From NCBI GenBank assembly GCA_038114285.1, contig JAYNQN010000001.1, forward strand, positions 120,454-184,453: DNA of 64,000 nt, in the 5' to 3' direction. A program made the position numbers and the translations under genes. Numbering within the stretch: position 1 is the stretch's first letter; each line of letters opens with the position of its first letter. The stretch comes from Gammaproteobacteria bacterium (GTDB lineage: Bacteria > Pseudomonadota > Gammaproteobacteria > Poriferisulfidales > GCA-002705445). The notes under the pieces were generated by a model. That model was not told the DNA's origin, searched no databases, and saw only the letters and a list, made by a program, of their open reading frames with translations. Of the stretch, positions 50,907 through 64,000 are shown piece by piece.

Positions 50907-53167
<2,261 letters not shown>

Positions 53168-53182
53168 TGACAGCAGAATAAA

Positions 53183-54406
53183 ATGCTCTTAATTATAAAT
53201 AAATTAAAAAATGCAGATGTATATTTGTTACCAATAGCAATTTTTTTTATATTAATATCATCTGCAGGTACAAATATATTTATTTTATTAGCAGTATTAT
53301 TTTCATTGGTACACTGCATATACAAAAAAAATTACCAAATTCTATTTGAGAAAAATTTCCTTAAGATTTGCTTTTTAATATATTTTCTATTTTTAATATC
53401 GTCTTTATATAGTATTAGTAATTTTGAAGAAATAATTAGCTCTTTAAAAAAATATATTAAATTTCTATATATTCCTTTTATATATTACATTGTCAAAATA
53501 CATAAAAATGAAAAATTAATAATTAATTTTTTTATATTTGGCTCAACAATTATTTTGGCTTTGTCATATTTAAAATACTTTAATATATTCAATTTTGATA
53601 GTTTCTATGAATTTTTAAAAAATACTAATATTGCAAACCCTAAAGATAAAATAATTATTAATAAAACTTCCGTTTTTCAGAATTATATTGTGCATGGTGT
53701 TGTTTTTTCTTTTTATTCATTTCTTTGTTTTTATCTTGCAAAAAAAAATAATATCTTACAATATTATTCATTATCCTTAATGTCTTTATTAAACGTGTTA
53801 TTATTAAATGATTCACGCAAAGGATATATAATTATTTTAATTTTATCTGTTTTTACTTTTTTTCAATTAATTTCTAGCAATAAAATACGCTTATCAATAT
53901 TATTAATTTTTGGCTCAATATTTTTTACGCATTTTTCTGATAATTTATTAAATAGAGTAAATGTCTTAAGTAGTGATTTGTATTTTATAGATAAAAATAA
54001 TTATAATACATCGTTAGGTTATAGGTATATATGGACTAAAGTAGGAGTTGATAATCTTGCAAAGAAGCCTTTATTTGGTTTTGGTGCGGGGTCATACGAA
54101 AAAACGTCTGTAAGATATTATAAGGATAATAATGTAAATGATTATGATAGTTACATTACGAATAACCCACACAATGAATTTATAAGTATTTCAACCCAAT
54201 TGGGTTTAGTTGGTTTATCTTTATTTTTTATTTTTTTATATAATTTGTTTAAAGATTCAAATTACCAAACCGTTCCAATTGGTATAGTTATAACTGTTTT
54301 TGTTTCATCATTATTTAACAGCGCTTTTTATGATAATATGCTAGGATTATTTCTAATAATTATAATTAGTCTTTTATATCAAAATAATTTTAAAATTAAA
54401 AATTAA
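53183..54406 (+). CDS. waaL: O-antigen ligase (WaaL / Wzy_C-domain) family polytopic membrane protein
   Basis: About 10 predicted transmembrane helices and a periplasmic loop with GFGAGSYE...NNPHNEFISISTQLGLVGL, matching the Wzy_C/O-antigen-ligase signature. Confidence 0.6.
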   Translation: MLLIINKLKNADVYLLPIAIFFILISSAGTNIFILLAVLFSLVHCIYKKNYQILFEKNFLKICFLIYFLFLISSLYSISNFEEIISSLKKYIKFLYIPFIYYIVKIHKNEKLIINFFIFGSTIILALSYLKYFNIFNFDSFYEFLKNTNIANPKDKIIINKTSVFQNYIVHGVVFSFYSFLCFYLAKKNNILQYYSLSLMSLLNVLLLNDSRKGYIIILILSVFTFFQLISSNKIRLSILLIFGSIFFTHFSDNLLNRVNVLSSDLYFIDKNNYNTSLGYRYIWTKVGVDNLAKKPLFGFGAGSYEKTSVRYYKDNNVNDYDSYITNNPHNEFISISTQLGLVGLSLFFIFLYNLFKDSNYQTVPIGIVITVFVSSLFNSAFYDNMLGLFLIIIISLLYQNNFKIKN

Positions 54407-54412
54407 TAGAAA

Positions 54413-55213
54413 ATGAAATTTTTGCAAAATAATCTAGCAGTTAAAGATATTATTTTTTCTTTTAAAAATTTTTATTCTTGGTCATATTTATCTTATTTTG
54501 ACCTAAAATTAAAATATCGAAGAACATTTCTTGGGCCTTGGTGGGTTGTACTAGGAATTGCTATTTCCGCAACTGCGATGTGTTTCTTATGGAGTACAAT
54601 TTTTAATTTAGACTGGAAATCATATTTAACATATTTGTTTTCTGGTTTTATTATATGGATGTGGATAAGTCAACTTGTAATTGATGCGCCTGATATATTC
54701 TGTGGTAGCGCGTCAAAATATATTAAAGCTTACCCCAATCCTCCTATTTTTTATGTCTTTAGAAAATGTTTTTTAAGTTTTTTACTTTTTTTACACCATA
54801 TACCTCTTATAATTTTAGTAACAATCTTAGTAAATCAAAAAATTAATATAATTGTTATATATACACTACCTATAGGTTTATTTTTAATTTTTATAAATTC
54901 TATATTATTTACTACTATTATTGGAATGGTTTCTGCAAGGTATCGAGATATTGATCCTTTAGTGAAATCATTAATGCCGCCTATGCTCTTATTAACACCA
55001 GTATTATGGAAACCTGAAATGCTAGGCGAATATCATTCATACGTTTATTTAAATCCATTTACACATTTTGTAGGCATAGTTAGAAATGATTTAATTGGTT
55101 TGGAGTTTGATTTAAAAATATGGATTGGCGCTATTCTGATAACAATTTTTCAATTAATAATATTTTTTTTACTTTACTCAAAAAAGAGTAAAAGAATTGT
55201 ATTTTGGGTTTAA
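54413..55213 (+). CDS. wzm: ABC-2 type polysaccharide export permease (Wzm/KpsM-like)
   Basis: 266 aa, six transmembrane helices, an ABC-2 fold; overlaps the next ATPase gene. Confidence 0.75.
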   Translation: MKFLQNNLAVKDIIFSFKNFYSWSYLSYFDLKLKYRRTFLGPWWVVLGIAISATAMCFLWSTIFNLDWKSYLTYLFSGFIIWMWISQLVIDAPDIFCGSASKYIKAYPNPPIFYVFRKCFLSFLLFLHHIPLIILVTILVNQKINIIVIYTLPIGLFLIFINSILFTTIIGMVSARYRDIDPLVKSLMPPMLLLTPVLWKPEMLGEYHSYVYLNPFTHFVGIVRNDLIGLEFDLKIWIGAILITIFQLIIFFLLYSKKSKRIVFWV

Positions 55214-55974
55214 TTATGAGGTCAGAAATTATATTAAAAAATGTAAATTTAGATTTTCCGATATATGATGTTGAGTCATTATCTATAAGGAACAAAATAA
55301 GTAATTTTGGAAAAGTTATAGTTAATAAAACTTCTACAAATAAGTCTGGCTCTAGAATTGTTAAAGGCCTAAAAAATATTAATTTTAATATGAATCATGG
55401 AGATAGAATCGCTCTTCTTGGCCCCAACGGATCTGGTAAAACAACATTATTAAAACTTCTTGCTGGAATATATTCGCCAACATCGGGCACCCTAAGTAAA
55501 ATTGGTGATATAAGTTGTATGTTAGATATTGGATTTGGATTTGAACAAGACGCTACTGGATATGAAAATATAATATTATCAAATATTACACGAGGCCTGT
55601 CTAAAGATGATATTGAAAAAATATTACCAGATATTGCTGAATTTAGTGGCTTAGGGGAATTTTTAGATATGCCTTTCAGAACATATTCCAGTGGAATGCA
55701 AGCGAGACTTGCTTTTTCTTCAGCTATAGCAAATACCCCAGATATATTGTTAATAGATGAATTTTTTTCTACAGGCGATATTGATTTTTCAGAAAAAAGT
55801 AAAAAAAAGGTTTTGAAGATGATGGATAACTCATCAATATTAGTATTTGCATCACACGATCTAGAATTACTAGACTCAATATGCAATAAAGCTATATGTA
55901 TGCATAGTGGAGAAATAATTTTCTCAGGCAGTACGAAGGAAGCAATTGCACAATATAAATCAATTTATGAATAA
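55204..55974 (+). CDS. wzt: ABC polysaccharide export ATP-binding protein (Wzt/KpsT-like, no C-terminal carbohydrate-binding domain)
   Basis: Walker A GPNGSGKTT, signature YSSGMQARL, Walker B LLIDEF; 256 aa. Confidence 0.8.
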   Translation: MGLIMRSEIILKNVNLDFPIYDVESLSIRNKISNFGKVIVNKTSTNKSGSRIVKGLKNINFNMNHGDRIALLGPNGSGKTTLLKLLAGIYSPTSGTLSKIGDISCMLDIGFGFEQDATGYENIILSNITRGLSKDDIEKILPDIAEFSGLGEFLDMPFRTYSSGMQARLAFSSAIANTPDILLIDEFFSTGDIDFSEKSKKKVLKMMDNSSILVFASHDLELLDSICNKAICMHSGEIIFSGSTKEAIAQYKSIYE

Positions 55975-57418
55975 AAAATATAACTTAGATTATAAAGTAG
56001 ACCCATCATTTCAATGCACAAAATATGTAAAAGCTCATAATGAGAATAATTTTACTAAGCATAGTTACAAAGACCATATCGTTAGAGCAGATCTTTGTAG
56101 CTCTTTAATCTCGATACTTTTTAACACAAACAATATTGATACCTCCCTTTATTCAATAAAAAAATTTATAGATAAATCTGATGACCCAGCAAAATTACAA
56201 TTTTGTATAAAGATTGATAATGAATCTAATGTTACAGAAGAATTTTTAAAAAAAATATCTAAATATAAAAGTAATTTTGTAATCATCTCATCTCCAAAAG
56301 GCAGAGGTTACTTGGATCTTTGGCAATGGATTAATTTTTTATACAAAATTTCATCTAGAAAATCAAAATTTGTGATGAATATATCTGACGAAATGTATGT
56401 AAATGAAGATAAATGGGATAAGTTGTTAGAAAAATATTTAAATTTGACAGACGATAGAATTTTTCGTTTAAGAACATCTGTATATAAAAATAGAAATTAT
56501 AGCACTTTATTTGAATGCGGATATGCTCCAGACACAACTGCAATATATTCAAGAAAATATATTGAACTGCAAGGCGATTTTTCACCTTGTTTCGGACCTG
56601 ATAACGGTCAGCAATTTGTCGCATACTATTTAGCAACAATTAACTACCCAAGACATTATCAATTTTTAAGAGATTTTGTAATAGAAACAATTAGTTTTAA
56701 AGGCCAAGGAACAAATAAAGGTTTAGAAGGAGAATCAAGAAATCAAAGACTAGTGGATAATTATTTACTTTGGATAAATATGTTCAAATTTAAATTTCAA
56801 AGTATTTATTTGAAAAGAGCAAGAAAAATTCAAGTGGAAATTTTAAAATTTAATTTTCCAGATATTAATATAGTAGACAATATTTTTAAGCAAAGATTTG
56901 AACTAAGGTATACAGATGAAAATAATAGAAAAAATATAGTTTTAAAATTGTCATACAAAATATCAAAAATTAAACATTTGTGGCACAACATTAGTAAAAT
57001 AAATTTTTTTAAATGGCATACAGGTTATGATAGACCTTTAATATATGGAGTATTGACACATATATGCGTAAAATTTTTAAAAAAATTTCCAAAATTAAAA
57101 TCAGCAAAAAAAACATCTAATCCTATACTTATAAGAGTAATAGATAATTTTAGTGATAAGAGTTTAAAAATAAATAAGTCAATTAATTCAAGAATAAGAG
57201 TTTTAGAAAAATTTAAAATAATGGAATTCACAATATTTATTATTGCAATAATTTTATTAATTGTAATCTTTGTAGCAACATTTCCTAGTTTTAAAACTAA
57301 TTTATTAATACTTAATCAAAGATTTAAAATAATTAAAATTTATTCAAGAAAAAATTCATTTATTATCTCAAATAATAAAATAGATCAATCAAAAACAGTT
57401 GTTATAAGAGGCGATTAA
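55946..57418 (+). CDS. Hypothetical 490-aa protein with a single C-terminal transmembrane anchor; no recognisable family
   Basis: Lys/Asn-rich soluble region followed by a hydrophobic helix MEFTIFIIAIILLIVIFVATF near the C-terminus. Embedded in the glycan cluster between wzt and the nucleotidyltransferase. Confidence 0.4.
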   Translation: MHNINQFMNKKYNLDYKVDPSFQCTKYVKAHNENNFTKHSYKDHIVRADLCSSLISILFNTNNIDTSLYSIKKFIDKSDDPAKLQFCIKIDNESNVTEEFLKKISKYKSNFVIISSPKGRGYLDLWQWINFLYKISSRKSKFVMNISDEMYVNEDKWDKLLEKYLNLTDDRIFRLRTSVYKNRNYSTLFECGYAPDTTAIYSRKYIELQGDFSPCFGPDNGQQFVAYYLATINYPRHYQFLRDFVIETISFKGQGTNKGLEGESRNQRLVDNYLLWINMFKFKFQSIYLKRARKIQVEILKFNFPDINIVDNIFKQRFELRYTDENNRKNIVLKLSYKISKIKHLWHNISKINFFKWHTGYDRPLIYGVLTHICVKFLKKFPKLKSAKKTSNPILIRVIDNFSDKSLKINKSINSRIRVLEKFKIMEFTIFIIAIILLIVIFVATFPSFKTNLLILNQRFKIIKIYSRKNSFIISNNKIDQSKTVVIRGD

Positions 57419-57421
57419 TTT

Positions 57422-58612
57422 ATGAAGCAATGTGTAATTCTAGTTGGTGGAAAAGGAACTAGGCTAGGTGAGTTAACTAAAAATACACCAAAGCCAATGT
57501 TAGAGATAAATAATAAGCCTTTTTTACTTTACATAATTGAAACTATCGTTAGATATGGATTTACAGAAATAATACTATTAGCATCACATGCAAATAAAGT
57601 TCTAATAGATTACTTTAAAAAGAATAGCTATAAAAATTGCAAGATTAAGATTATTGTTGAGGAGGAACCGCTAGGGACAGGTGGTGCTTTAGTAAATGCA
57701 TTTGAGCATTTAAATGACAGTTTTTTTTGCTTAAATGGAGATTCTATAATTGAAGGTAATTGGTTATCTTTAGTTGAAAATTTTGATACTAATGCAGATG
57801 TTGTTATTGGACTTACCGAAACGAATGATTCATCTCGCTACGGGTCAATTGAAATACAAAATAAAAAAATTATTTCTTTTAATGAGAAGAATGAAAGTTC
57901 AAAATCTAAATTAATAAATGGAGGTATTTATTTACTGCGAAAATCTATATTTAAAAATCTTAAAAAAAATTTTATATCATTGGAAAATGATATATTTCCC
58001 AATATAGTTAATTCAGGAAAAGCTAATGGATTAAAAATAAAAGGTTTTTTTATAGACATTGGAACAGTTAAATCTTTAGAGTATGCAAGAAAAAGAGATT
58101 GGCAGAAAGATAAAAAAGCCGTGGTCTTTGATAGAGATGGTACACTAAATCATGATGAAGGATACACATATAAGATAGAAGACTTGTCATGGACTGACGG
58201 CGCTATAGATTTAATAAAATATCTAAATAACAATAATTATTTAGTTTTTGTTGCAACCAATCAAGCTGGTATAGCAAAAGGTAAATTCCTAGAAAGTGAT
58301 ATGTTTAAATTTCATGAAAATATGCAAGAGCAATTAAGAAAAGTAGGGGCACATATAGATAAATTTTATTATTGCCCATTCCATATTGAAGGGGTAGTTG
58401 ATAAATATAAAATTGATAGTAATGACAGAAAGCCTAATGTTGGGATGTTGCAAAGTATCTATCAAGAATGGAATTTACAAAAAAGCAAAATGATTATGAT
58501 AGGAGATAGAGACACTGACATAGAGTGCGCAGAAAAATTTAAAATACAGGGTTATAAATACAATATTAAAGATGATATAATGGAATTTTTTAAAAATAAA
58601 ATTAATTTTTAA
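57422..58612 (+). CDS. Bifunctional sugar-1-phosphate nucleotidyltransferase (HddC-like) / D-glycero-D-manno-heptose 1,7-bisphosphate phosphatase (GmhB)
   Basis: N-terminus VILVGGKGTRLGELTKNTPKPML is the NTP_transferase G-x-G-T-R-L motif. The C-terminal ~180 aa are colinear with E. coli GmhB: VFDRDGTLN...GY, VATNQAGIAKGKF, YYCPFH, RKPNVGML, MIGDRDTDIECA. Confidence 0.8.
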   Translation: MKQCVILVGGKGTRLGELTKNTPKPMLEINNKPFLLYIIETIVRYGFTEIILLASHANKVLIDYFKKNSYKNCKIKIIVEEEPLGTGGALVNAFEHLNDSFFCLNGDSIIEGNWLSLVENFDTNADVVIGLTETNDSSRYGSIEIQNKKIISFNEKNESSKSKLINGGIYLLRKSIFKNLKKNFISLENDIFPNIVNSGKANGLKIKGFFIDIGTVKSLEYARKRDWQKDKKAVVFDRDGTLNHDEGYTYKIEDLSWTDGAIDLIKYLNNNNYLVFVATNQAGIAKGKFLESDMFKFHENMQEQLRKVGAHIDKFYYCPFHIEGVVDKYKIDSNDRKPNVGMLQSIYQEWNLQKSKMIMIGDRDTDIECAEKFKIQGYKYNIKDDIMEFFKNKINF

Positions 58613-58617
58613 ATACA

Positions 58618-59313
58618 ATGAATTATGAAAATTTTATAAATGAGTTCAATAAAAAAGGGTATTTTATTCTTTCTGGAGTTTTTGAATCAAAAGATTGCGA
58701 AAAAATTATATCCGAAGCAAATAAAATTAAAGAAAAAGACAATAATTATCTTCCCTTAATGAATCCACATAAAAATTCTAAATCCATAATGGAAGCTATG
58801 GGAAATAAAACAATAATAAGATTTATAGAGTCTTATTTTAAAAATGAGGTTTATGGTTTACAAACAGAGTTTTTTTTTATGCCTCCACATACAAAAGGTT
58901 TTACGCCTCATCAAGATAATACATACGTGCAGGCTGATGAAAATTCATTTGTATCGGCTTGGGTTGCCCTTACAGATGTAAATGAAAAAAATGGTGGTTT
59001 GATAATTTGGCCAATGTCACATAAAGAAAAAAAACTGCAATCTTTGGAAAATATAGAAGAAAAATCATTTAATCAAGACCCTAACGCCAGAAGTAGAATA
59101 ACTATACTCCCGGATAGCTATAAAAAGATTACGCCATCTATAAAAAAAGGTGATGTTATTATGATTCATAGTTGGTTAGTTCATGCTTCAAATGATAACA
59201 AGTCTAAAGCAAATAGAAATGCCTTGTTATGCACTTATTTGAAAAAAGACGCAAATTTTAGGCCTGGAAATACTGCGAAAAGAAAACCTTTCAAATTAAT
59301 ATCTAATTTATGA
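58618..59313 (+). CDS. Phytanoyl-CoA dioxygenase (PhyH) family Fe(II)/2-oxoglutarate-dependent oxygenase
   Basis: 231 aa; HQD facial-triad motif (FTPHQDNTY) and a distal His in IHSWLVHAS; PhyH-like length and spacing. Confidence 0.6.
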   Translation: MNYENFINEFNKKGYFILSGVFESKDCEKIISEANKIKEKDNNYLPLMNPHKNSKSIMEAMGNKTIIRFIESYFKNEVYGLQTEFFFMPPHTKGFTPHQDNTYVQADENSFVSAWVALTDVNEKNGGLIIWPMSHKEKKLQSLENIEEKSFNQDPNARSRITILPDSYKKITPSIKKGDVIMIHSWLVHASNDNKSKANRNALLCTYLKKDANFRPGNTAKRKPFKLISNL

Positions 59314-60200
59314 ATAAAATAAACAAAGGACACATGGGATCTACAATAAAATTTTCTTCTAAAGAAGATGTAAAACTATTTTTAAAAGATTTCAATAGCC
59401 CCAGTAAAATAGTAGAACTCTTTTCTTCTTGGAAGTATCTGAACCAATATGATTTAAGTAAAATTAAGTTTAAAGAAGTTATAATTGATGAATTAATTAA
59501 AAAGAAATTGGTTGATGATTTAGTTTTTAGTAAAAATGAATATAAACTTGAGAAATTACATTTGTGTTTAAATTCAAAATATAAAACACTTGATGAGTCA
59601 GAGCAAAATAAAATATCTATTAGTTTTTATGAAACATCTAAAATATTAAATGATCTTTATGTGGAATTTATAAAAAATGTAATATCAAAAGATTTTAATG
59701 AGAAAATTTATTATCAGAAAGTTCCGACTTTTAGATTTCATTTTCCTAATCAGGAGGGTTACAACTGGAATGACAGGTACCATACAGATATCATGCTGGG
59801 CCATCCTCCCTATGAAAATAACATTTGGGTACCTTTTACAAATGCTTTTGGTAGCAATAGTATGAGACTGATGCCTTTGCAAGACAGTATTGACTTATTA
59901 AATGAGTGTAACAATGATTTTGAGGTTTTTGCAGAAAAAACTCAATACAATGAAGACTTTATGGATAATTTGAAAAAATGTTCAGATCCTTTGGAAATGC
60001 GCTATGGAGAATATATTATATTTGATTCAAGATGTTTGCATTGCACCCAGTACAATGATACAAAAGACACAAGAATAAGCATGGATATAAGAGTAATACA
60101 AGAAAGTGAGATAAAAAAATATTCACGTTCGTATACGACAACAGGTAGAAAAAAAATGCCTTTCTTGCCAGGTTATTACTTTTCCAAAGAAGCTTTATAA
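59310..60200 (+). CDS. Hypothetical protein, possibly a second divergent Fe(II)/2OG oxygenase-like enzyme
   Basis: 296 aa; a candidate HxD...H triad (RYHTDIM ... FDSRCLHCT). This is motif-level inference only. Confidence 0.35.
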   Translation: MNKINKGHMGSTIKFSSKEDVKLFLKDFNSPSKIVELFSSWKYLNQYDLSKIKFKEVIIDELIKKKLVDDLVFSKNEYKLEKLHLCLNSKYKTLDESEQNKISISFYETSKILNDLYVEFIKNVISKDFNEKIYYQKVPTFRFHFPNQEGYNWNDRYHTDIMLGHPPYENNIWVPFTNAFGSNSMRLMPLQDSIDLLNECNNDFEVFAEKTQYNEDFMDNLKKCSDPLEMRYGEYIIFDSRCLHCTQYNDTKDTRISMDIRVIQESEIKKYSRSYTTTGRKKMPFLPGYYFSKEAL

Positions 60201-60205
60201 AAAAT

Positions 60206-61153
60206 ATGAAAAATAAATTTAACAATGAAAAAGCATATTATCTATATTTACTTATAAGAAAAAGTGAAGAAAAAATTATAGATTTATATAGCACAGATAA
60301 AATAAAAAGCCCCGTACATTTATCAATTGGTCAAGAAGCAATTGCTGTAGGAGTAAGTTTGGCGTTAAAAGACGAAGACATAATTTTTAGTAATTACAGG
60401 GGACATGCTCATTATATAGCGCGAGAAGCAAACCTTGATAAAATGTGGGCTGAGCTTTATGGAAAAAGTAGAGGTACTGCGCGTGGTAAAGGTGGTTCTA
60501 TGCATTTAAATGATTGGGGTAAAAAATTTATGCCGACGTCAGCCATTGTATCGACTGCTATCCCTCAAGCTGTCGGTTATGCGTTCGCTCTCAAATATAA
60601 AAAACAAAATGGTATTGTAATTTGTTATCATGGTGATGGTGCTACAGAGGAGGGTGTCTTTTGGGAGTCTCTGAACTTTGCTAGTTTGCATGAACTTCCT
60701 ATTATATTTATTTGTGAAAACAATAAATATGCAATATACACACATCAAGATAAAAGAGTAAAAAATGATCCTATTATAGAGAGAGCAAATTCGTTTGGAG
60801 TAAAATCAAAAAAGATAAAGTTTGGATCTACTGAAGATTACTATAATGTAACATCAGAATGTATAAATAATATTAATAATAAAAGTGAACCATATTTGAT
60901 TGAGTGTGTAACTACAAGATGGAAAGATCACGTAGGAACTGGAGATGCATCTGATCTGAATTACCGTGATATGAGAGAAATTGATTTTGCAATTGAACAT
61001 GATGATTTAATTAATTTAGAAAAACAATTATCATCAGATGTAATTAAAAAAATTAAGTTACAAGTAGATAGAGAATTAGAAAATGCAGTAAATTTTGCTG
61101 AAGCAAGTAATTTTCCAAATAAAGAAGAACTTTATGATAACGTCTATGGATAA
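60206..61153 (+). CDS. Thiamine-diphosphate-dependent dehydrogenase E1 component, alpha subunit (pyruvate/acetoin dehydrogenase E1-alpha-like)
   Basis: 315 aa; the TPP-binding block GDGATEEGVFWESLNFASLHELPIIFICENNKYAI is the GDG...N motif of the E1-alpha family. Confidence 0.8.
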   Translation: MKNKFNNEKAYYLYLLIRKSEEKIIDLYSTDKIKSPVHLSIGQEAIAVGVSLALKDEDIIFSNYRGHAHYIAREANLDKMWAELYGKSRGTARGKGGSMHLNDWGKKFMPTSAIVSTAIPQAVGYAFALKYKKQNGIVICYHGDGATEEGVFWESLNFASLHELPIIFICENNKYAIYTHQDKRVKNDPIIERANSFGVKSKKIKFGSTEDYYNVTSECINNINNKSEPYLIECVTTRWKDHVGTGDASDLNYRDMREIDFAIEHDDLINLEKQLSSDVIKKIKLQVDRELENAVNFAEASNFPNKEELYDNVYG

Positions 61154-61158
61154 TAATA

Positions 61159-62208
61159 ATGAATTCAATTGTTGATAAAAAACTAATAAATTATGGTGAA
61201 GCTATTTACGAAGCTTGTTATCAAGAGATGGAAATTGATAAAAATGTTTTTGTGTACGGGCTCGGTGTTGACGATCCCAAAGGCCATTATGGAACTTCCA
61301 AAGATCTTCATAAAGTTTACGGTAAAAATAGAAGCTTTGATGTCCCCCTGTCAGAAGATGGTTTAACTGGCATAGGTATCGGTGCTGCGTTAGCTGGCTT
61401 AAGACCAATTTATGTTCATCAGCGAATGGATTTTCTTTTGTTATGTATGAATCAATTAGTGAACATGGCAGCTAAGATTAGATATATTTCTTCTGGCGAA
61501 CACTCGGTTCCAATCGTTATAAGGGCTGCAGTTGGAAGAAGCTGGGGACAAGGAGCTCAGCATAGTCAATCACTCCAATCATTTTTTATGCATGTTCCAG
61601 GTATAAAAGTTATTGCACCAACAACACCACATGACGCCAAAGGGGCGTTAATAGCAAGCATAAGAGACAATAATCCTGTTGTATTTATAGAGCATAGAAT
61701 GTTATACAATAACGCAGGATATGTGCCATCAAGTTTATATGAGGTACCTTTTGGTAAAGGAAGAATTTTAAAAGAAGGTAATGATATTACAATCGTAGGA
61801 GTAAGTTACACGGTAGAGGATTCGTTAAGAGCTTCAGAGTTACTGAAAGGCGTTGGTGTAAATGCCGAAATAATTGACCCAATAAGTTTATCACCAATAG
61901 ATTATGAGTTGATAAGAAAGTCAGTTTCTAAAACAGGAAAACTATTGGTTGTAGATAATGGATGGACAACATGTGGATTTTCATCAGAAATTATTACAGA
62001 TGTTGCAATAAATTGTAATAATGTAAGTTGTGAAAGAATTGGATTTTCAGAAACACCTTGCCCAACTACACCCAGTTTAGAAAATATATTTTATCCTACT
62101 CCACAGTCAATAGCAGTAAAAGCAAACGAAATGTGCGGTGGAGATTCAAAGTGGAGTCCTCCTGAGCAACCTGCAAAAGAAATTACTTCATTTAAGGGTC
62201 CATTTTAA
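61159..62208 (+). CDS. Thiamine-diphosphate-dependent dehydrogenase E1 component, beta subunit (transketolase-like)
   Basis: 349 aa with a transketolase pyrimidine-binding domain plus a C-terminal domain; paired with the upstream alpha subunit. No E2/E3 genes are adjacent. Confidence 0.8.
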   Translation: MNSIVDKKLINYGEAIYEACYQEMEIDKNVFVYGLGVDDPKGHYGTSKDLHKVYGKNRSFDVPLSEDGLTGIGIGAALAGLRPIYVHQRMDFLLLCMNQLVNMAAKIRYISSGEHSVPIVIRAAVGRSWGQGAQHSQSLQSFFMHVPGIKVIAPTTPHDAKGALIASIRDNNPVVFIEHRMLYNNAGYVPSSLYEVPFGKGRILKEGNDITIVGVSYTVEDSLRASELLKGVGVNAEIIDPISLSPIDYELIRKSVSKTGKLLVVDNGWTTCGFSSEIITDVAINCNNVSCERIGFSETPCPTTPSLENIFYPTPQSIAVKANEMCGGDSKWSPPEQPAKEITSFKGPF

Positions 62209-62291
62209 AATTTTTATTTTTTTTATTTGGTCAATAATTTGATATTATAAAAATAATGTTATTTTATAAATATTATAAACAAGGAATTTAA

Positions 62292-63302
62292 GTGAAAGCA
62301 TTAATAACTGGAATAACTGGAATGGTAGGCTCACATCTTGCAGATTATCTTCTGGAAAATACTGATTGGGAAATTCATGGCTTAATTAGATGGAGAAGTC
62401 CTTTGGATAATATTGAGGGATTAATAAAAAATATAAATAACAAAGAAAGAGTATTTTTACATTATGGTGACTTGCGAGATCCTCAGTCTTTAAATAAAGT
62501 TGTATCTGAAATAATTCCAGATTATGTATTTCACTTAGCAGCACAAAGCTATCCAAAAACAAGTTTTGATGCTCCAATAGATACTTATGATACAAATATT
62601 TCTGGAACATCAAATCTTTTAGAAGCTTTAAAAGTTTATGCGCAAGATTCGTGTATACACGTATGTGCATCATCAGAAGTTTTCGGAAGGGTTTCAAAAG
62701 ATAAACTACCGATAAATGAAGAGTGTTCATTTCATCCTGCTTCTCCATATGCAATTTCAAAAGTTGGAACGGATCTAGTAGGAAGATTCTATGCGGAAGC
62801 TTATGGAATGAAAATAATGACTACAAGAATGTTTACTCATACAGGACCTAGAAGAGGGGATGTTTTTGCAGAATCAACTTTTGCAAAACAAATTGCATTA
62901 GCAGAAGCAGGAAAAATTGATCCAATTATAAAAGTTGGAAACTTAAAATCTATGAGAACTATAGCTGATGTTCGAGATGCTGTAAGAGCTTATTATATGC
63001 TAGTTACAATAAACCCAACATCTGGTGAGTACTATAATATTGGAGGGAGTCATACGTGCACAATAGAGAAAATACTAAATGACTTGATCAATATATCTAC
63101 AATCAAAGATAAGCTTAAGATTGTTCAAGATAAAGACAGAATAAGACCAATTGACGCAGATTTGCAAGTTCCAGACACATCAAAATTTAAGAAGCATACT
63201 GGATGGGAGCCCAAAATACCATATGAAAAAACTATATCAGATTTATTAGATTTTTGGAGAGTGCAAGTTTCTAAAAATAATGGAAATTATTTAACAAGAT
63301 AA
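62292..63302 (+). CDS. Extended-SDR NDP-sugar 4,6-dehydratase (GDP-mannose/GDP-heptose 4,6-dehydratase Gmd/DmhA-like; Rmd-like reductase not excluded)
   Basis: GTG start; ITGITGMVGSHLADYLL Rossmann motif, a YxxxK region (SPYAISK) and HTGPRRG...F, colinear with the Gmd HESPRRGETF block. Confidence 0.6.
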   Translation: MKALITGITGMVGSHLADYLLENTDWEIHGLIRWRSPLDNIEGLIKNINNKERVFLHYGDLRDPQSLNKVVSEIIPDYVFHLAAQSYPKTSFDAPIDTYDTNISGTSNLLEALKVYAQDSCIHVCASSEVFGRVSKDKLPINEECSFHPASPYAISKVGTDLVGRFYAEAYGMKIMTTRMFTHTGPRRGDVFAESTFAKQIALAEAGKIDPIIKVGNLKSMRTIADVRDAVRAYYMLVTINPTSGEYYNIGGSHTCTIEKILNDLINISTIKDKLKIVQDKDRIRPIDADLQVPDTSKFKKHTGWEPKIPYEKTISDLLDFWRVQVSKNNGNYLTR

Positions 63303-63309
63303 TGATTAT

Positions 63310-64000
63310 ATGAATGACATAAATTTTATAAAATCATTAAATAAAGCAGAGCCTTTTTTAGATCATAAAAATGCAGTTTTAAGTGCGCCAATTAGGCATT
63401 TGTTTATGATTGGGGTTATCTGGTACTTAAATAAAAATAAAAAAATTACTAATATTTTAGAAATAGGATCATGGTTTGGAGCATCAACTTTATCATGGGC
63501 TCAAGGTTTATTAAAATACGCAAAATTAAATAGCTCTATCACATGTATAGATGCGTGGGAGCCTTTTTTTGATATGAATGTTCACGCAGATCATAATTAT
63601 GCTAACGAAATGGAACAACTGCTTGAGTCAGAATTTGCATACAATATCTTTTTGCACAATATGAGAACAATTAAGAAGGAATTAAAAACTCAGCACTTTA
63701 GAGGTAAAAGTGAAAATATATTATGCCAATTGAAAAATGAAATTTATGATGTTGTTTTTATAGATGCAGATCATACTTATAAATCTGTAAGCAAAGATAT
63801 TAAAAATTCATTGAGGCTAGTAAAAGATGGTGGAATAATTTGCGGAGACGATTTAAATTTGCAATTATGTGAAATTGATAAAGACTATGCAAATAAGAAT
63901 AAAGACAAAGACTTCATAAAAGATCCACTAACAAATAAAAATTATCATCCTGGGGTTACGCTTGCAGTTTTTGAAGAATTTGGCGAGGTTTCATCATGGG
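63310..64000 (+). CDS. Class I SAM-dependent methyltransferase of the TylF/MycF/CmcI family (3' end outside the window)
   Basis: ILEIGSWFGASTLSWAQ (SAM-binding motif I) and FIDADHTYKSV, matching the D-x-D-H-x-Y block of TylF/CmcI-type methyltransferases. Confidence 0.55.
   Translation, partial: MNDINFIKSLNKAEPFLDHKNAVLSAPIRHLFMIGVIWYLNKNKKITNILEIGSWFGASTLSWAQGLLKYAKLNSSITCIDAWEPFFDMNVHADHNYANEMEQLLESEFAYNIFLHNMRTIKKELKTQHFRGKSENILCQLKNEIYDVVFIDADHTYKSVSKDIKNSLRLVKDGGIICGDDLNLQLCEIDKDYANKNKDKDFIKDPLTNKNYHPGVTLAVFEEFGEVSSW

Follow-up and report, generated by a model that had tools for sequence, protein, structure and literature searches.

Background

The PhyH family of Fe(II)/2-oxoglutarate (2OG) oxygenases includes phytanoyl-CoA 2-hydroxylase, PHYHD1, EctD, SnoK/SnoN and GriE, which act in lipid, osmolyte and polyketide metabolism and share a double-stranded beta-helix fold, an HxD...H metal-binding triad and an arginine, about 11 residues after the distal histidine, that binds the C5 carboxylate of 2OG. 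Two adjacent open reading frames (ORFs) with the same fold, triad and arginine (R200 in ORF1, R255 in ORF2) are described here, and they lie in a surface-glycan cluster rather than in any of those metabolic contexts. They occupy positions 58618-60200 of a 64,000-nucleotide stretch of gammaproteobacterial DNA, hereafter the window (GenBank assembly GCA_038114285.1, contig JAYNQN010000001.1, positions 120,454 to 184,453 of the forward strand). In predicted fold and active site neither protein departs from what is usual in the Fe/2OG superfamily. With moderate confidence, they are read below as two dedicated tailoring oxygenases acting on the guanosine diphosphate (GDP)-heptose-derived sugar of a glycan exported by an ATP-binding cassette (ABC) transporter.

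Oxygenases of this kind are already known from carbohydrate loci. A curated NCBIfam family, TIGR04324 ("sporadic carbohydrate cluster 2OG-Fe(II) oxygenase"), groups 2OG oxygenases encoded, like ORF2, inside carbohydrate biosynthesis clusters; the neighbors that were tested, however, match none of the companion families of TIGR04324, and we know of no characterized member. Moreover, Fe(II)/2OG enzymes that oxidize a sugar carbon of a glycoconjugate include KdoO, the 3-hydroxylase of 3-deoxy-D-manno-octulosonic acid (Kdo), and EvdO/AviO/HygX, whose substrates are Kdo2-lipid A and antibiotic oligosaccharides, respectively. Carbohydrates are thus within reach of the superfamily. Specific similarity to the present proteins was not seen, as none of these enzymes is among the best 50 Foldseek matches listed for either model.

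Two pathway types resemble the genes around the pair. In the first, a pyruvate-derived two-carbon chain is attached at C4 of nucleoside diphosphate (NDP)-4-keto-deoxysugars by Plm8/Plm9 and AviB1/B2, and YerE is the single-chain analogue of such stand-alone E1 alpha/beta pairs (PMC4802897). The routes to yersiniose (YerE/YerF), eurekanate (AviB1/AviB2) and paulomycose (Plm8/Plm9) share with the present cassette an NDP-sugar 4,6-dehydratase, a stand-alone thiamine diphosphate (ThDP) enzyme and a reductase, and the yersiniose-type logic is shared further by sister lineages that carry an RfbH-like 3-dehydrase. However, those routes use hexoses linked to thymidine or cytidine diphosphate (dTDP, CDP) and serve antibiotics or the Yersinia O-antigen, whereas the genes here suggest activation of the GDP-heptose type; in addition, Fe/2OG oxygenases are not described there, whereas two are present here. 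The second type is represented by the capsule GDP-heptose pathways of Campylobacter jejuni (Raushel laboratory), in which 4,6-dehydration and C3-dehydration of GDP-heptose have been demonstrated (PMC10440746): a Gmd-like enzyme gives GDP-6-deoxy-4-keto-heptose, on which C3-dehydratases and C4-reductases then act (PMC10440746, PMC10680097). The 20 enzymes characterized in these pathways differ from the present set in including neither an Fe/2OG dioxygenase nor a ThDP enzyme, and the word "dioxygenase" is absent from the survey of the C. jejuni GDP-heptose enzymes; the known heptose-tailoring toolbox holds only dehydrogenases, dehydratases, epimerases, reductases and mutases.

Predicted Active Sites and Folds

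ORF1 is a clear member of PhyH, scoring 95.7 bits against PF05721 (gathering cut-off 22) over profile positions 1-213 of 213. The HQD...H triad that the original prediction, made from the letters of the window and its reading frames, had recognized in this protein was confirmed: H98, Q99, D100 and H189, together with R200, do not vary across 30 aligned homologues (37-79% identity). The top PDB sequence match is human phytanoyl-CoA hydroxylase PHYH (2a1x, E 5e-9), in which H98-Q-D100 falls on HQD, H189 on the histidine of LIHGS and R200 on the arginine of FRKAISC. The AlphaFold2 model (predicted local distance difference test, pLDDT, 93.3) superposes on SnoN, proline hydroxylase H11, SnoK, GriE, PHYHD1 and PHYH with template modeling (TM) scores of 0.69-0.82 (Foldseek, PDB), identity to solved members being 14-18% among the Foldseek matches listed.

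ORF2 has no Pfam match at E<=0.01, does not reach the gathering threshold of PF05721 and has no meaningful PDB sequence match; its family profile reaches AndA and PtlH at E 0.1-0.3 only, with the expected motifs aligned. What had been described as a weaker HTD...H pattern proved to be a real conserved metal/2OG site and not a chance occurrence, as all 35 homologues compared (31-74% identity) have H158, D160, H244, R255 and S257. The basic residues R142, H165, R261 and R280 are invariant as well. The AlphaFold2 model (pLDDT 95.5; predicted TM score, pTM, 0.92) has a helical N-terminal part of about 130 residues, and every one of its Foldseek PDB matches is a PhyH-like Fe/2OG enzyme found with probability 1.00 (CurA Hal, SyrB2, SptF, AndA, PtlH and SnoN), with TM scores of only 0.34-0.47 and 8-17% identity to solved members. 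The poor superposition, by which ORF2 differs from the described PhyH enzymes, is explained by this long helical N-terminal part and by divergent loops. The designation of both proteins as PhyH-type thus holds for ORF1 by Pfam, and for ORF2 at the level of fold and superfamily, below the thresholds of Pfam PhyH and of TIGR04324. Some ORF2 homologues do pass PF05721: the one in comparison locus L017 scores 28.2 bits over its C-terminal 50 residues, and a precomputed match is present in 27 of the 100 proteins listed in the ORF2 homologue search, 26 of the 27 being ORF2 homologues.

The sole curated family that ORF2 matches well is TIGR04324 (E 9e-23, 81 bits, cut-off 150). True membership is ruled out by score: none of the 35 members of the ORF2 family reaches the threshold (none at E<=1e-41, roughly 150 bits), and ORF2 is therefore placed in a sister subfamily. 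Distant ORF2 homologues score 52-66 bits against the same model, and two homologues are named at JGI as being of the TIGR04324 type. The subfamily is small: in a set of 1.84 billion representatives, E<=1e-30 is reached by 120, E<=1e-10 by 1062 and E<=1e-3 by 2288, and no homologue was found in the plasmid collection. The last of these counts agrees with the original view that oxygenases of this sort are uncommon in O-antigen or capsule loci, while TIGR04324 shows that a precedent exists.

Both models have a jelly-roll (double-stranded beta-helix) core, predicted with high confidence as the original prediction had anticipated, and the top Foldseek PDB matches of both are without exception Fe/2OG enzymes at probability 1.00. 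The profile-profile alignment of the two families (hhalign) is weak (E 0.011, 19% identity), which rules out a recent tandem duplication, and by sequence comparison ORF1 and ORF2 are distant paralogues; H158 of ORF2 stands in register with H98 of ORF1, H244 with H189 and R255 with R200, and the triad is also in register with those of PHYH and PtlH. Because the fold, the invariant facial triad and the 2OG-binding arginine are found in both families, catalytic activity as Fe(II)/2OG oxygenases is predicted for both proteins. Activity as a halogenase was considered for ORF2 in view of its top structural matches, CurA Hal and SyrB2. In Fe/2OG halogenases the carboxylate ligand is replaced by alanine or glycine (HxA/G), which gives the halide site; the aspartate is invariant in both families (D100 in ORF1, D160 in ORF2), and therefore neither is a halogenase family.

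Constraint on the two genes could be measured against the metagenomic contig L029, which is collinear with the window over 52514-64000 at 97.8% nucleotide identity. ORF1 differs from its counterpart by 25 synonymous and 6 non-synonymous changes, with a ratio of non-synonymous to synonymous substitution rates (dN/dS) of 0.05, and ORF2 by 10 and 3 (dN/dS 0.06). These ratios are close to the values of the adjoining genes, and both ORFs are under purifying selection.

Conservation of the Pair Across Lineages

The gene order of the window, including the hflKC-hisZ-purA flank, recurs in marine contigs at about 65% protein identity and in marine gammaproteobacterial single-amplified genomes (SAGs) and metagenome-assembled genomes (MAGs) that bear the NCBI labels "uncultured Thiothrix sp." and "Gammaproteobacteria bacterium"; these may belong to a SAR86-like lineage. 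A wider set of 24 loci was obtained by a scan with the ORF2 profile, one genome per species, and neighbors were scored by BLASTP. An ORF1 homologue is present in 18 of the 24 and immediately adjacent to the ORF2 homologue in 16; E1 alpha plus beta genes occur in 14 loci, as does a GHMP kinase, and the dehydratase-like gene (67-87% identity) and HddC/GmhB-like genes in 13 each, while an Fcl-like short-chain dehydrogenase/reductase (SDR) and methyltransferases are frequent. The adjacent pair spans Gamma- and Alphaproteobacteria, Acidobacteriota and Marinimicrobia. It is carried by gammaproteobacterial SAGs and MAGs, by a Rickettsiales-labeled SAG, Azospirillum oleiclasticum (with divergent transcription) and further Alphaproteobacteria, and by Ca. 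Sulfotelmatobacter and a Marinimicrobia MAG.

Of all elements of the cassette, the oxygenase pair shows the tightest linkage. In the SAG locus L033, whose ORF1 homologue is 54% identical, the order HddC/GmhB-ORF1-ORF2 is kept without the E1 alpha/beta genes and the dehydratase-like gene, and the pair is likewise kept without E1 alpha/beta in L018, L022 and L023; it is therefore tied to sugar activation and not to a two-carbon branch. The downstream half of the L033 cluster is a case of modular swapping. HddC/GmhB, ORF1 and ORF2 are retained there (L033:2024-4795), and the places of the E1 alpha/beta, dehydratase-like and Methyltransf_24 genes are taken by genes for a different methyltransferase, a GT2 glycosyltransferase, another SDR and a protein with faint resemblance to GMC oxidoreductases.

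Sugar-Activation and Sugar-Modification Genes

The gene immediately upstream of the pair encodes a fused nucleotidyltransferase and phosphatase that exceeds the cut-off of TIGR01656 (103.9 bits, cut-off 84) and scores 152 bits against NCBIfam HddC (cut-off 300) and 125 bits against GmhB PRK08942 (cut-off 178). On these matches the fusion gene would mark a GDP-heptose-type activation pathway, and the sugar is probably a heptose. The pair had originally been placed between an NDP-heptose module and a module of E1, dehydratase and methyltransferase genes, and the gene order bears this out, with the heptose label at sub-threshold level only. L029 extends the view of the cluster beyond the last base of the window: there the methyltransferase gene is complete (279 aa, PF13578) and the dehydratase-like gene is followed, in this order, by that methyltransferase, a 344-aa protein of no assigned family, a GT2 glycosyltransferase, a GHMP kinase and an SDR. 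In a related locus the GHMP kinase has HddA as its best match (165 bits, cut-off 600) and the SDR has GDP-L-fucose synthase (Fcl-like), below the equivalog cut-off.

Downstream of the pair, the stand-alone E1 alpha/beta genes have no E2 or E3 gene beside them in the glycan cluster and adjoin the NDP-sugar 4,6-dehydratase-like gene, a layout that matches that of two-carbon branching. The dehydratase-like protein is not a canonical Gmd (181.8 bits against NCBIfam gmd, cut-off 415). Between the window and Alphaproteobacteria (L014-L017, L023, L028) it is 67-72% identical, where ORF1 and ORF2 are 31-46% identical; either unusually strong constraint or a separate transfer history would account for this.

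An RfbH-like 3-dehydrase dependent on pyridoxal or pyridoxamine phosphate (PLP/PMP; 422-424 aa, 344-375 bits, cut-off 423) is encoded in L007, L010, L011, L013, L014 and L015, between the E1 beta gene and the dehydratase-like gene (e.g., L010:12856-14130). At the corresponding position the window has only an 84-base spacer (62209-62291). Lineages with and without this gene may make 3-deoxy and 3-hydroxy forms, respectively, of one and the same glycan.

Proposed Role and Alternatives

The reading favored here starts from what is directly supported, namely the fold, the metal/2OG site, conservation, purifying selection, gene coupling and linkage to sugar genes across phyla; we infer from it that a heptose nucleotide is the substrate and that the reaction is a hydroxylation, as well as the position of attack and the order of the steps. 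ORF1 and ORF2 would be a co-expressed and translationally coupled tailoring pair. The sugar would be activated by a heptose-type route involving the GHMP kinase (downstream, as in L029) and the GmhB-like phosphatase fused to the HddC-like nucleotidyltransferase, and would then be remodeled by the 4,6-dehydratase-like enzyme, the Fcl-like epimerase/reductase, the E1 alpha/beta pair and the methyltransferase; by analogy with the branched-sugar pathways, the E1 pair may add a pyruvate-derived two-carbon branch to a 4-keto sugar. With O2 and 2OG, each oxygenase would oxidize an unactivated C-H bond of the nucleotide-linked heptose derivative, in the simplest case by two hydroxylations or by one CH2 -> CHOH -> C=O sequence. 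Polymerization of the glycan may then take place in the cytoplasm, with the Wzm/Wzt-like ABC transporter exporting the product and the Wzy_C protein ligating it. Taken as a whole, the cluster appears to be dedicated to the production of a single, heavily modified and possibly C4-branched heptose. The oxygenase substrate is placed on the heptose nucleotide and not on the two-carbon branch because the pair survives the loss of E1 alpha/beta. The original suggestion of C-H hydroxylation, or oxidative tailoring, of the sugar or of a non-carbohydrate substituent is supported in that its three refuting conditions (no double-stranded beta-helix fold, no metal triad, orthologues linked to lipid or amino-acid metabolism) were each examined and none came true.

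Several observations speak against this assignment. The characterized GDP-heptose toolbox is without a dioxygenase, so the proposal has no enzymological precedent, and both oxygenase subfamilies are known here from sequences and predicted structures. The heptose label depends on three of the four enzymes of the full route, HddA kinase, GmhB phosphatase and HddC guanylyltransferase, whose counterparts here all score below the equivalog cut-offs; the fourth, GmhA isomerase, was looked for without success in the window and the fetched loci, a weak negative obtained with an approximate E. coli GmhA query. Furthermore, pairing is not obligatory across the wider ORF1 and ORF2 families: the 6 loci lacking ORF1 hold the most divergent ORF2 relatives (28-38% identity), and in L031, a different polysaccharide locus, an ORF1 homologue (43%) lies without ORF2 and is flanked by FkbM methyltransferases. 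Finally, in the distant loci of Azospirillum (L017:8139-11963) and Marinimicrobia (L022:6793-11915) the pair is flanked by two methyltransferases, one of them FkbM-type, in the order methyltransferase-ORF1-ORF2-FkbM methyltransferase.

This last arrangement also bears on a second explanation, possible but distinctly less probable, in which the pair acts in the same glycan pathway on a substituent, which may be a methyl group on oxygen or carbon or else the two-carbon branch that derives from pyruvate, for example by conversion of a methyl to a hydroxymethyl or formyl group or by oxidative demethylation. An FkbM-family methyltransferase gene (about 348 aa) lies immediately 3' of the ORF2 gene in L017, L018, L022, L023 and L028, a second methyltransferase (316-322 aa) is encoded just upstream of ORF1 in L017 and L022, the order in L016 is E1a-E1b-ORF1-methyltransferase on one strand, and the window cluster has its own Methyltransf_24 gene. 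However, the neighboring methyltransferase families vary (Methyltransf_24 here, FkbM and Methyltransf_25 elsewhere) while the oxygenases are orthologous, and the persistence of the pair in the four loci without E1 alpha/beta (L033, L018, L022, L023) means that the two-carbon branch is not a universal substrate.

Somewhat less probable again is that the substrate is the one proposed and the ferryl chemistry another, such as the radical epimerization of SnoN, the C-C bond formation or cyclization of SnoK, or a desaturation. SnoN (E 3e-15, TM 0.73) and SnoK are the best structural matches of ORF1 and SnoK is also its second-best sequence match, these enzymes epimerize or cyclize the sugar moiety of nogalamycin, and the retention of two different oxygenases side by side suggests two different transformations. 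The ranking of SnoN is not discriminating, however, as the scores of H11, GriE and PHYHD1 lie less than a factor of ten away and all identities are as low as 16-18%; moreover, hydroxylation is the default outcome in the Fe/2OG superfamily, and halogenation is excluded by the invariant aspartate.

A bolder form of the favored reading, to which only a small chance is given, is that the cassette (heptose-type activation, 4,6-dehydratase, E1 alpha/beta and two oxygenases, with or without the RfbH-like 3-dehydrase) makes a surface sugar so far undescribed in these marine bacterioplankton, the pair oxidizing C-H bonds directly on the nucleotide-linked heptose. To our knowledge, there is no characterized example of such an oxidation. 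In the extreme version, C6 would be oxidized to a ketone after acetyl branching at C4, and an intramolecular aldol reaction would give a carbocyclic C9 sugar resembling caryose, which is a 4,8-cyclo-3,9-dideoxy-nonose.

It is very improbable that the two are passenger genes engaged in lipid, amino-acid or osmolyte oxidation and located in the cluster by accident: their NCBIfam relatives are ectoine hydroxylase, chlorinating enzymes and pentalenate hydroxylase (E about 1e-6) and one source labels homologues "ectoine hydroxylase-related dioxygenase," but these matches are far below the family cut-offs, and the pair, tightly packed and with a 4-base overlap, is found within sugar clusters of four or more phylum-level lineages. 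Synteny thus makes it unlikely that the pair serves a purpose other than the glycan; as the original prediction expected, the orthologues are in glycan clusters and not in lipid or amino-acid loci, and no lipid or amino-acid catabolic gene stands beside the pair in any locus examined. Two further ideas were dropped. Phosphonate tailoring (PhnY*-like) had as its sole support a 19-bit NCBIfam match, and no phosphoenolpyruvate (PEP) mutase domain was present among the cluster genes scanned. A link to the Coxiella O-antigen cluster for virenose and dihydrohydroxystreptose (DHHS) was also abandoned; the terms phytanoyl, oxygenase, "dehydrogenase E1" and transketolase do not occur in the paper on Coxiella lipopolysaccharide (LPS).

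While a curated family for 2OG oxygenases of carbohydrate clusters is already known, the ORF2 subfamily, its conserved pairing with a PhyH enzyme and the combination of heptose-type and E1 alpha/beta genes in one cassette are, as far as we know, undescribed. A literature search gave nothing on PhyH together with heptose and capsule, on "sporadic carbohydrate cluster," on virenose with phytanoyl or on GDP-heptose with dioxygenase, and incidental mentions only for PhyH with O-antigen; the papers retrieved on SAR86 and heptose were irrelevant. If the pair does oxidize a nucleotide-linked heptose, Fe/2OG-dependent C-H oxidation would be a new reaction class in heptose tailoring, and a modified, possibly branched heptose would be present on abundant low-GC marine Gammaproteobacteria and in several other phyla; the surface glycans of uncultured plankton, which determine recognition by phages and grazers, are chemically almost unknown. 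If all that happens is hydroxylation of a side chain or of a methyl group, the pair would represent an ordinary tailoring step, and there would be no mechanistic surprise unless the branched or carbocyclic sugar scenario were true. The cultured carrier Azospirillum oleiclasticum RWY-5-1-1 (L017) makes the hypothesis testable.

Locus Organization and Additional Observations

The two-gene feature consists of exactly ORF1 and ORF2, the stop of the former and the start of the latter sharing the four bases ATGA at 59310-59313. From 48.9 kb on, all genes of the window are on the + strand and closely packed, and matches resembling promoters or terminators turn up at least as often in shuffled sequence as in the region; packing, strand, the ATGA overlap and this lack of excess are consistent with one operon. 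The features are collected in Table 1.

Table 1. Positions in the window of the genes of the glycan cluster and of the predicted active-site codons of the two oxygenases.
Feature	Position	Strand	Basis
O-antigen ligase/polymerase-like membrane protein (Wzy_C)	53183..54406	+	Pfam PF04932, 68.9 bits
ABC-2 type permease (Wzm-like), glycan exporter	54413..55213	+	Pfam PF01061, E 5.5e-5, slightly under gathering score
ABC transporter ATPase (Wzt-like)	55204..55974	+	Pfam PF00005, 80.3 bits
490-aa cluster-specific protein, no assigned family	55946..57418	+	no Pfam or NCBIfam match
HddC-like sugar-1-phosphate nucleotidyltransferase + GmhB-like HAD-IIIA phosphatase fusion	57422..58612	+	Pfam NTP_transferase, 126 bits
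ORF1, PhyH-family Fe(II)/2OG oxygenase, 231 aa	58618..59313	+	Pfam PF05721
ORF1 predicted metal ligands	H98 58909-58911; D100 58915-58917; H189 59182-59184	+	codons verified in window
ORF1 predicted 2OG-binding Arg, R200	59215-59217	+	codon verified in window
ORF2, divergent PhyH-like Fe(II)/2OG oxygenase, 296 aa	59310..60200	+	motif, model, TIGR04324 sub-threshold
ORF2 predicted metal ligands	H158 59781-59783; D160 59787-59789; H244 60039-60041	+	codons verified in window
ORF2 predicted 2OG-binding residues	R255 60072-60074; S257 60078-60080	+	codons verified in window
Stand-alone ThDP-dependent E1 alpha	60206..61153	+	Pfam E1_dh 200.5 bits; NCBIfam pyruvate dehydrogenase (PDH) E1 alpha 282 bits (cut-off 394)
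E1 beta (transketolase-like pyrimidine-binding + C-terminal domains)	61159..62208	+	PF02779 110.8 bits, PF02780 94.6 bits
GDP-sugar 4,6-dehydratase-like SDR	62292..63302	+	Pfam GDP_Man_Dehyd 251.7 bits
Methyltransf_24-type methyltransferase, first 230 codons, runs off window end	63310..64000	+	open frame

Upstream of the glycan cluster the genes are, in order, hflK, hflC, a hisZ-like gene and purA. The Wzy_C gene is the first of the cluster, immediately 3' of purA, a position kept in related loci, and the ABC-2 permease is 63-79% identical across these loci. The gene of the 490-aa protein begins with TTG and overlaps the 3' part of the ABC ATPase gene. Related loci encode homologues at the equivalent place that are 39-62% identical (matches covering at least 50% of the query), and a 569-aa ORF in L010 is distantly related to it. 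At a guess, it could be an unrecognized glycosyltransferase or polymerase.

A 624-aa protein of L010 could consist of the 306-aa protein of no assigned family fused with an FkbM-type methyltransferase, a reading taken from the matching lengths and a 35% BLASTP match beside the 306-aa-type gene in L028, and from nothing else. The protein designated unk342 has no similarity to the FkbM methyltransferase. At L001:20591-20888 there is a second E1_dh-type gene, about 1.7 kb 3' of the last sugar gene of the cluster and separated from it by a DJ-1/PfpI gene and two small genes of no assigned family. A further contig, L030 (ENA ERZ28548063, 81 kb), contains a near-identical region with an ORF2 fragment that is 99% identical and many short broken ORFs throughout, which look like the product of a frameshift-rich long-read assembly rather than real pseudogenes.

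The G+C content of the window is about 29%. Over 52001-60000, the first half of the glycan cluster, the fraction falls to 0.25-0.28, with 0.30-0.33 in both flanks, a dip that is typical of surface-glycan islands. The sole tRNA gene of the window, for tRNA-Val (GAC), lies at 279-355.

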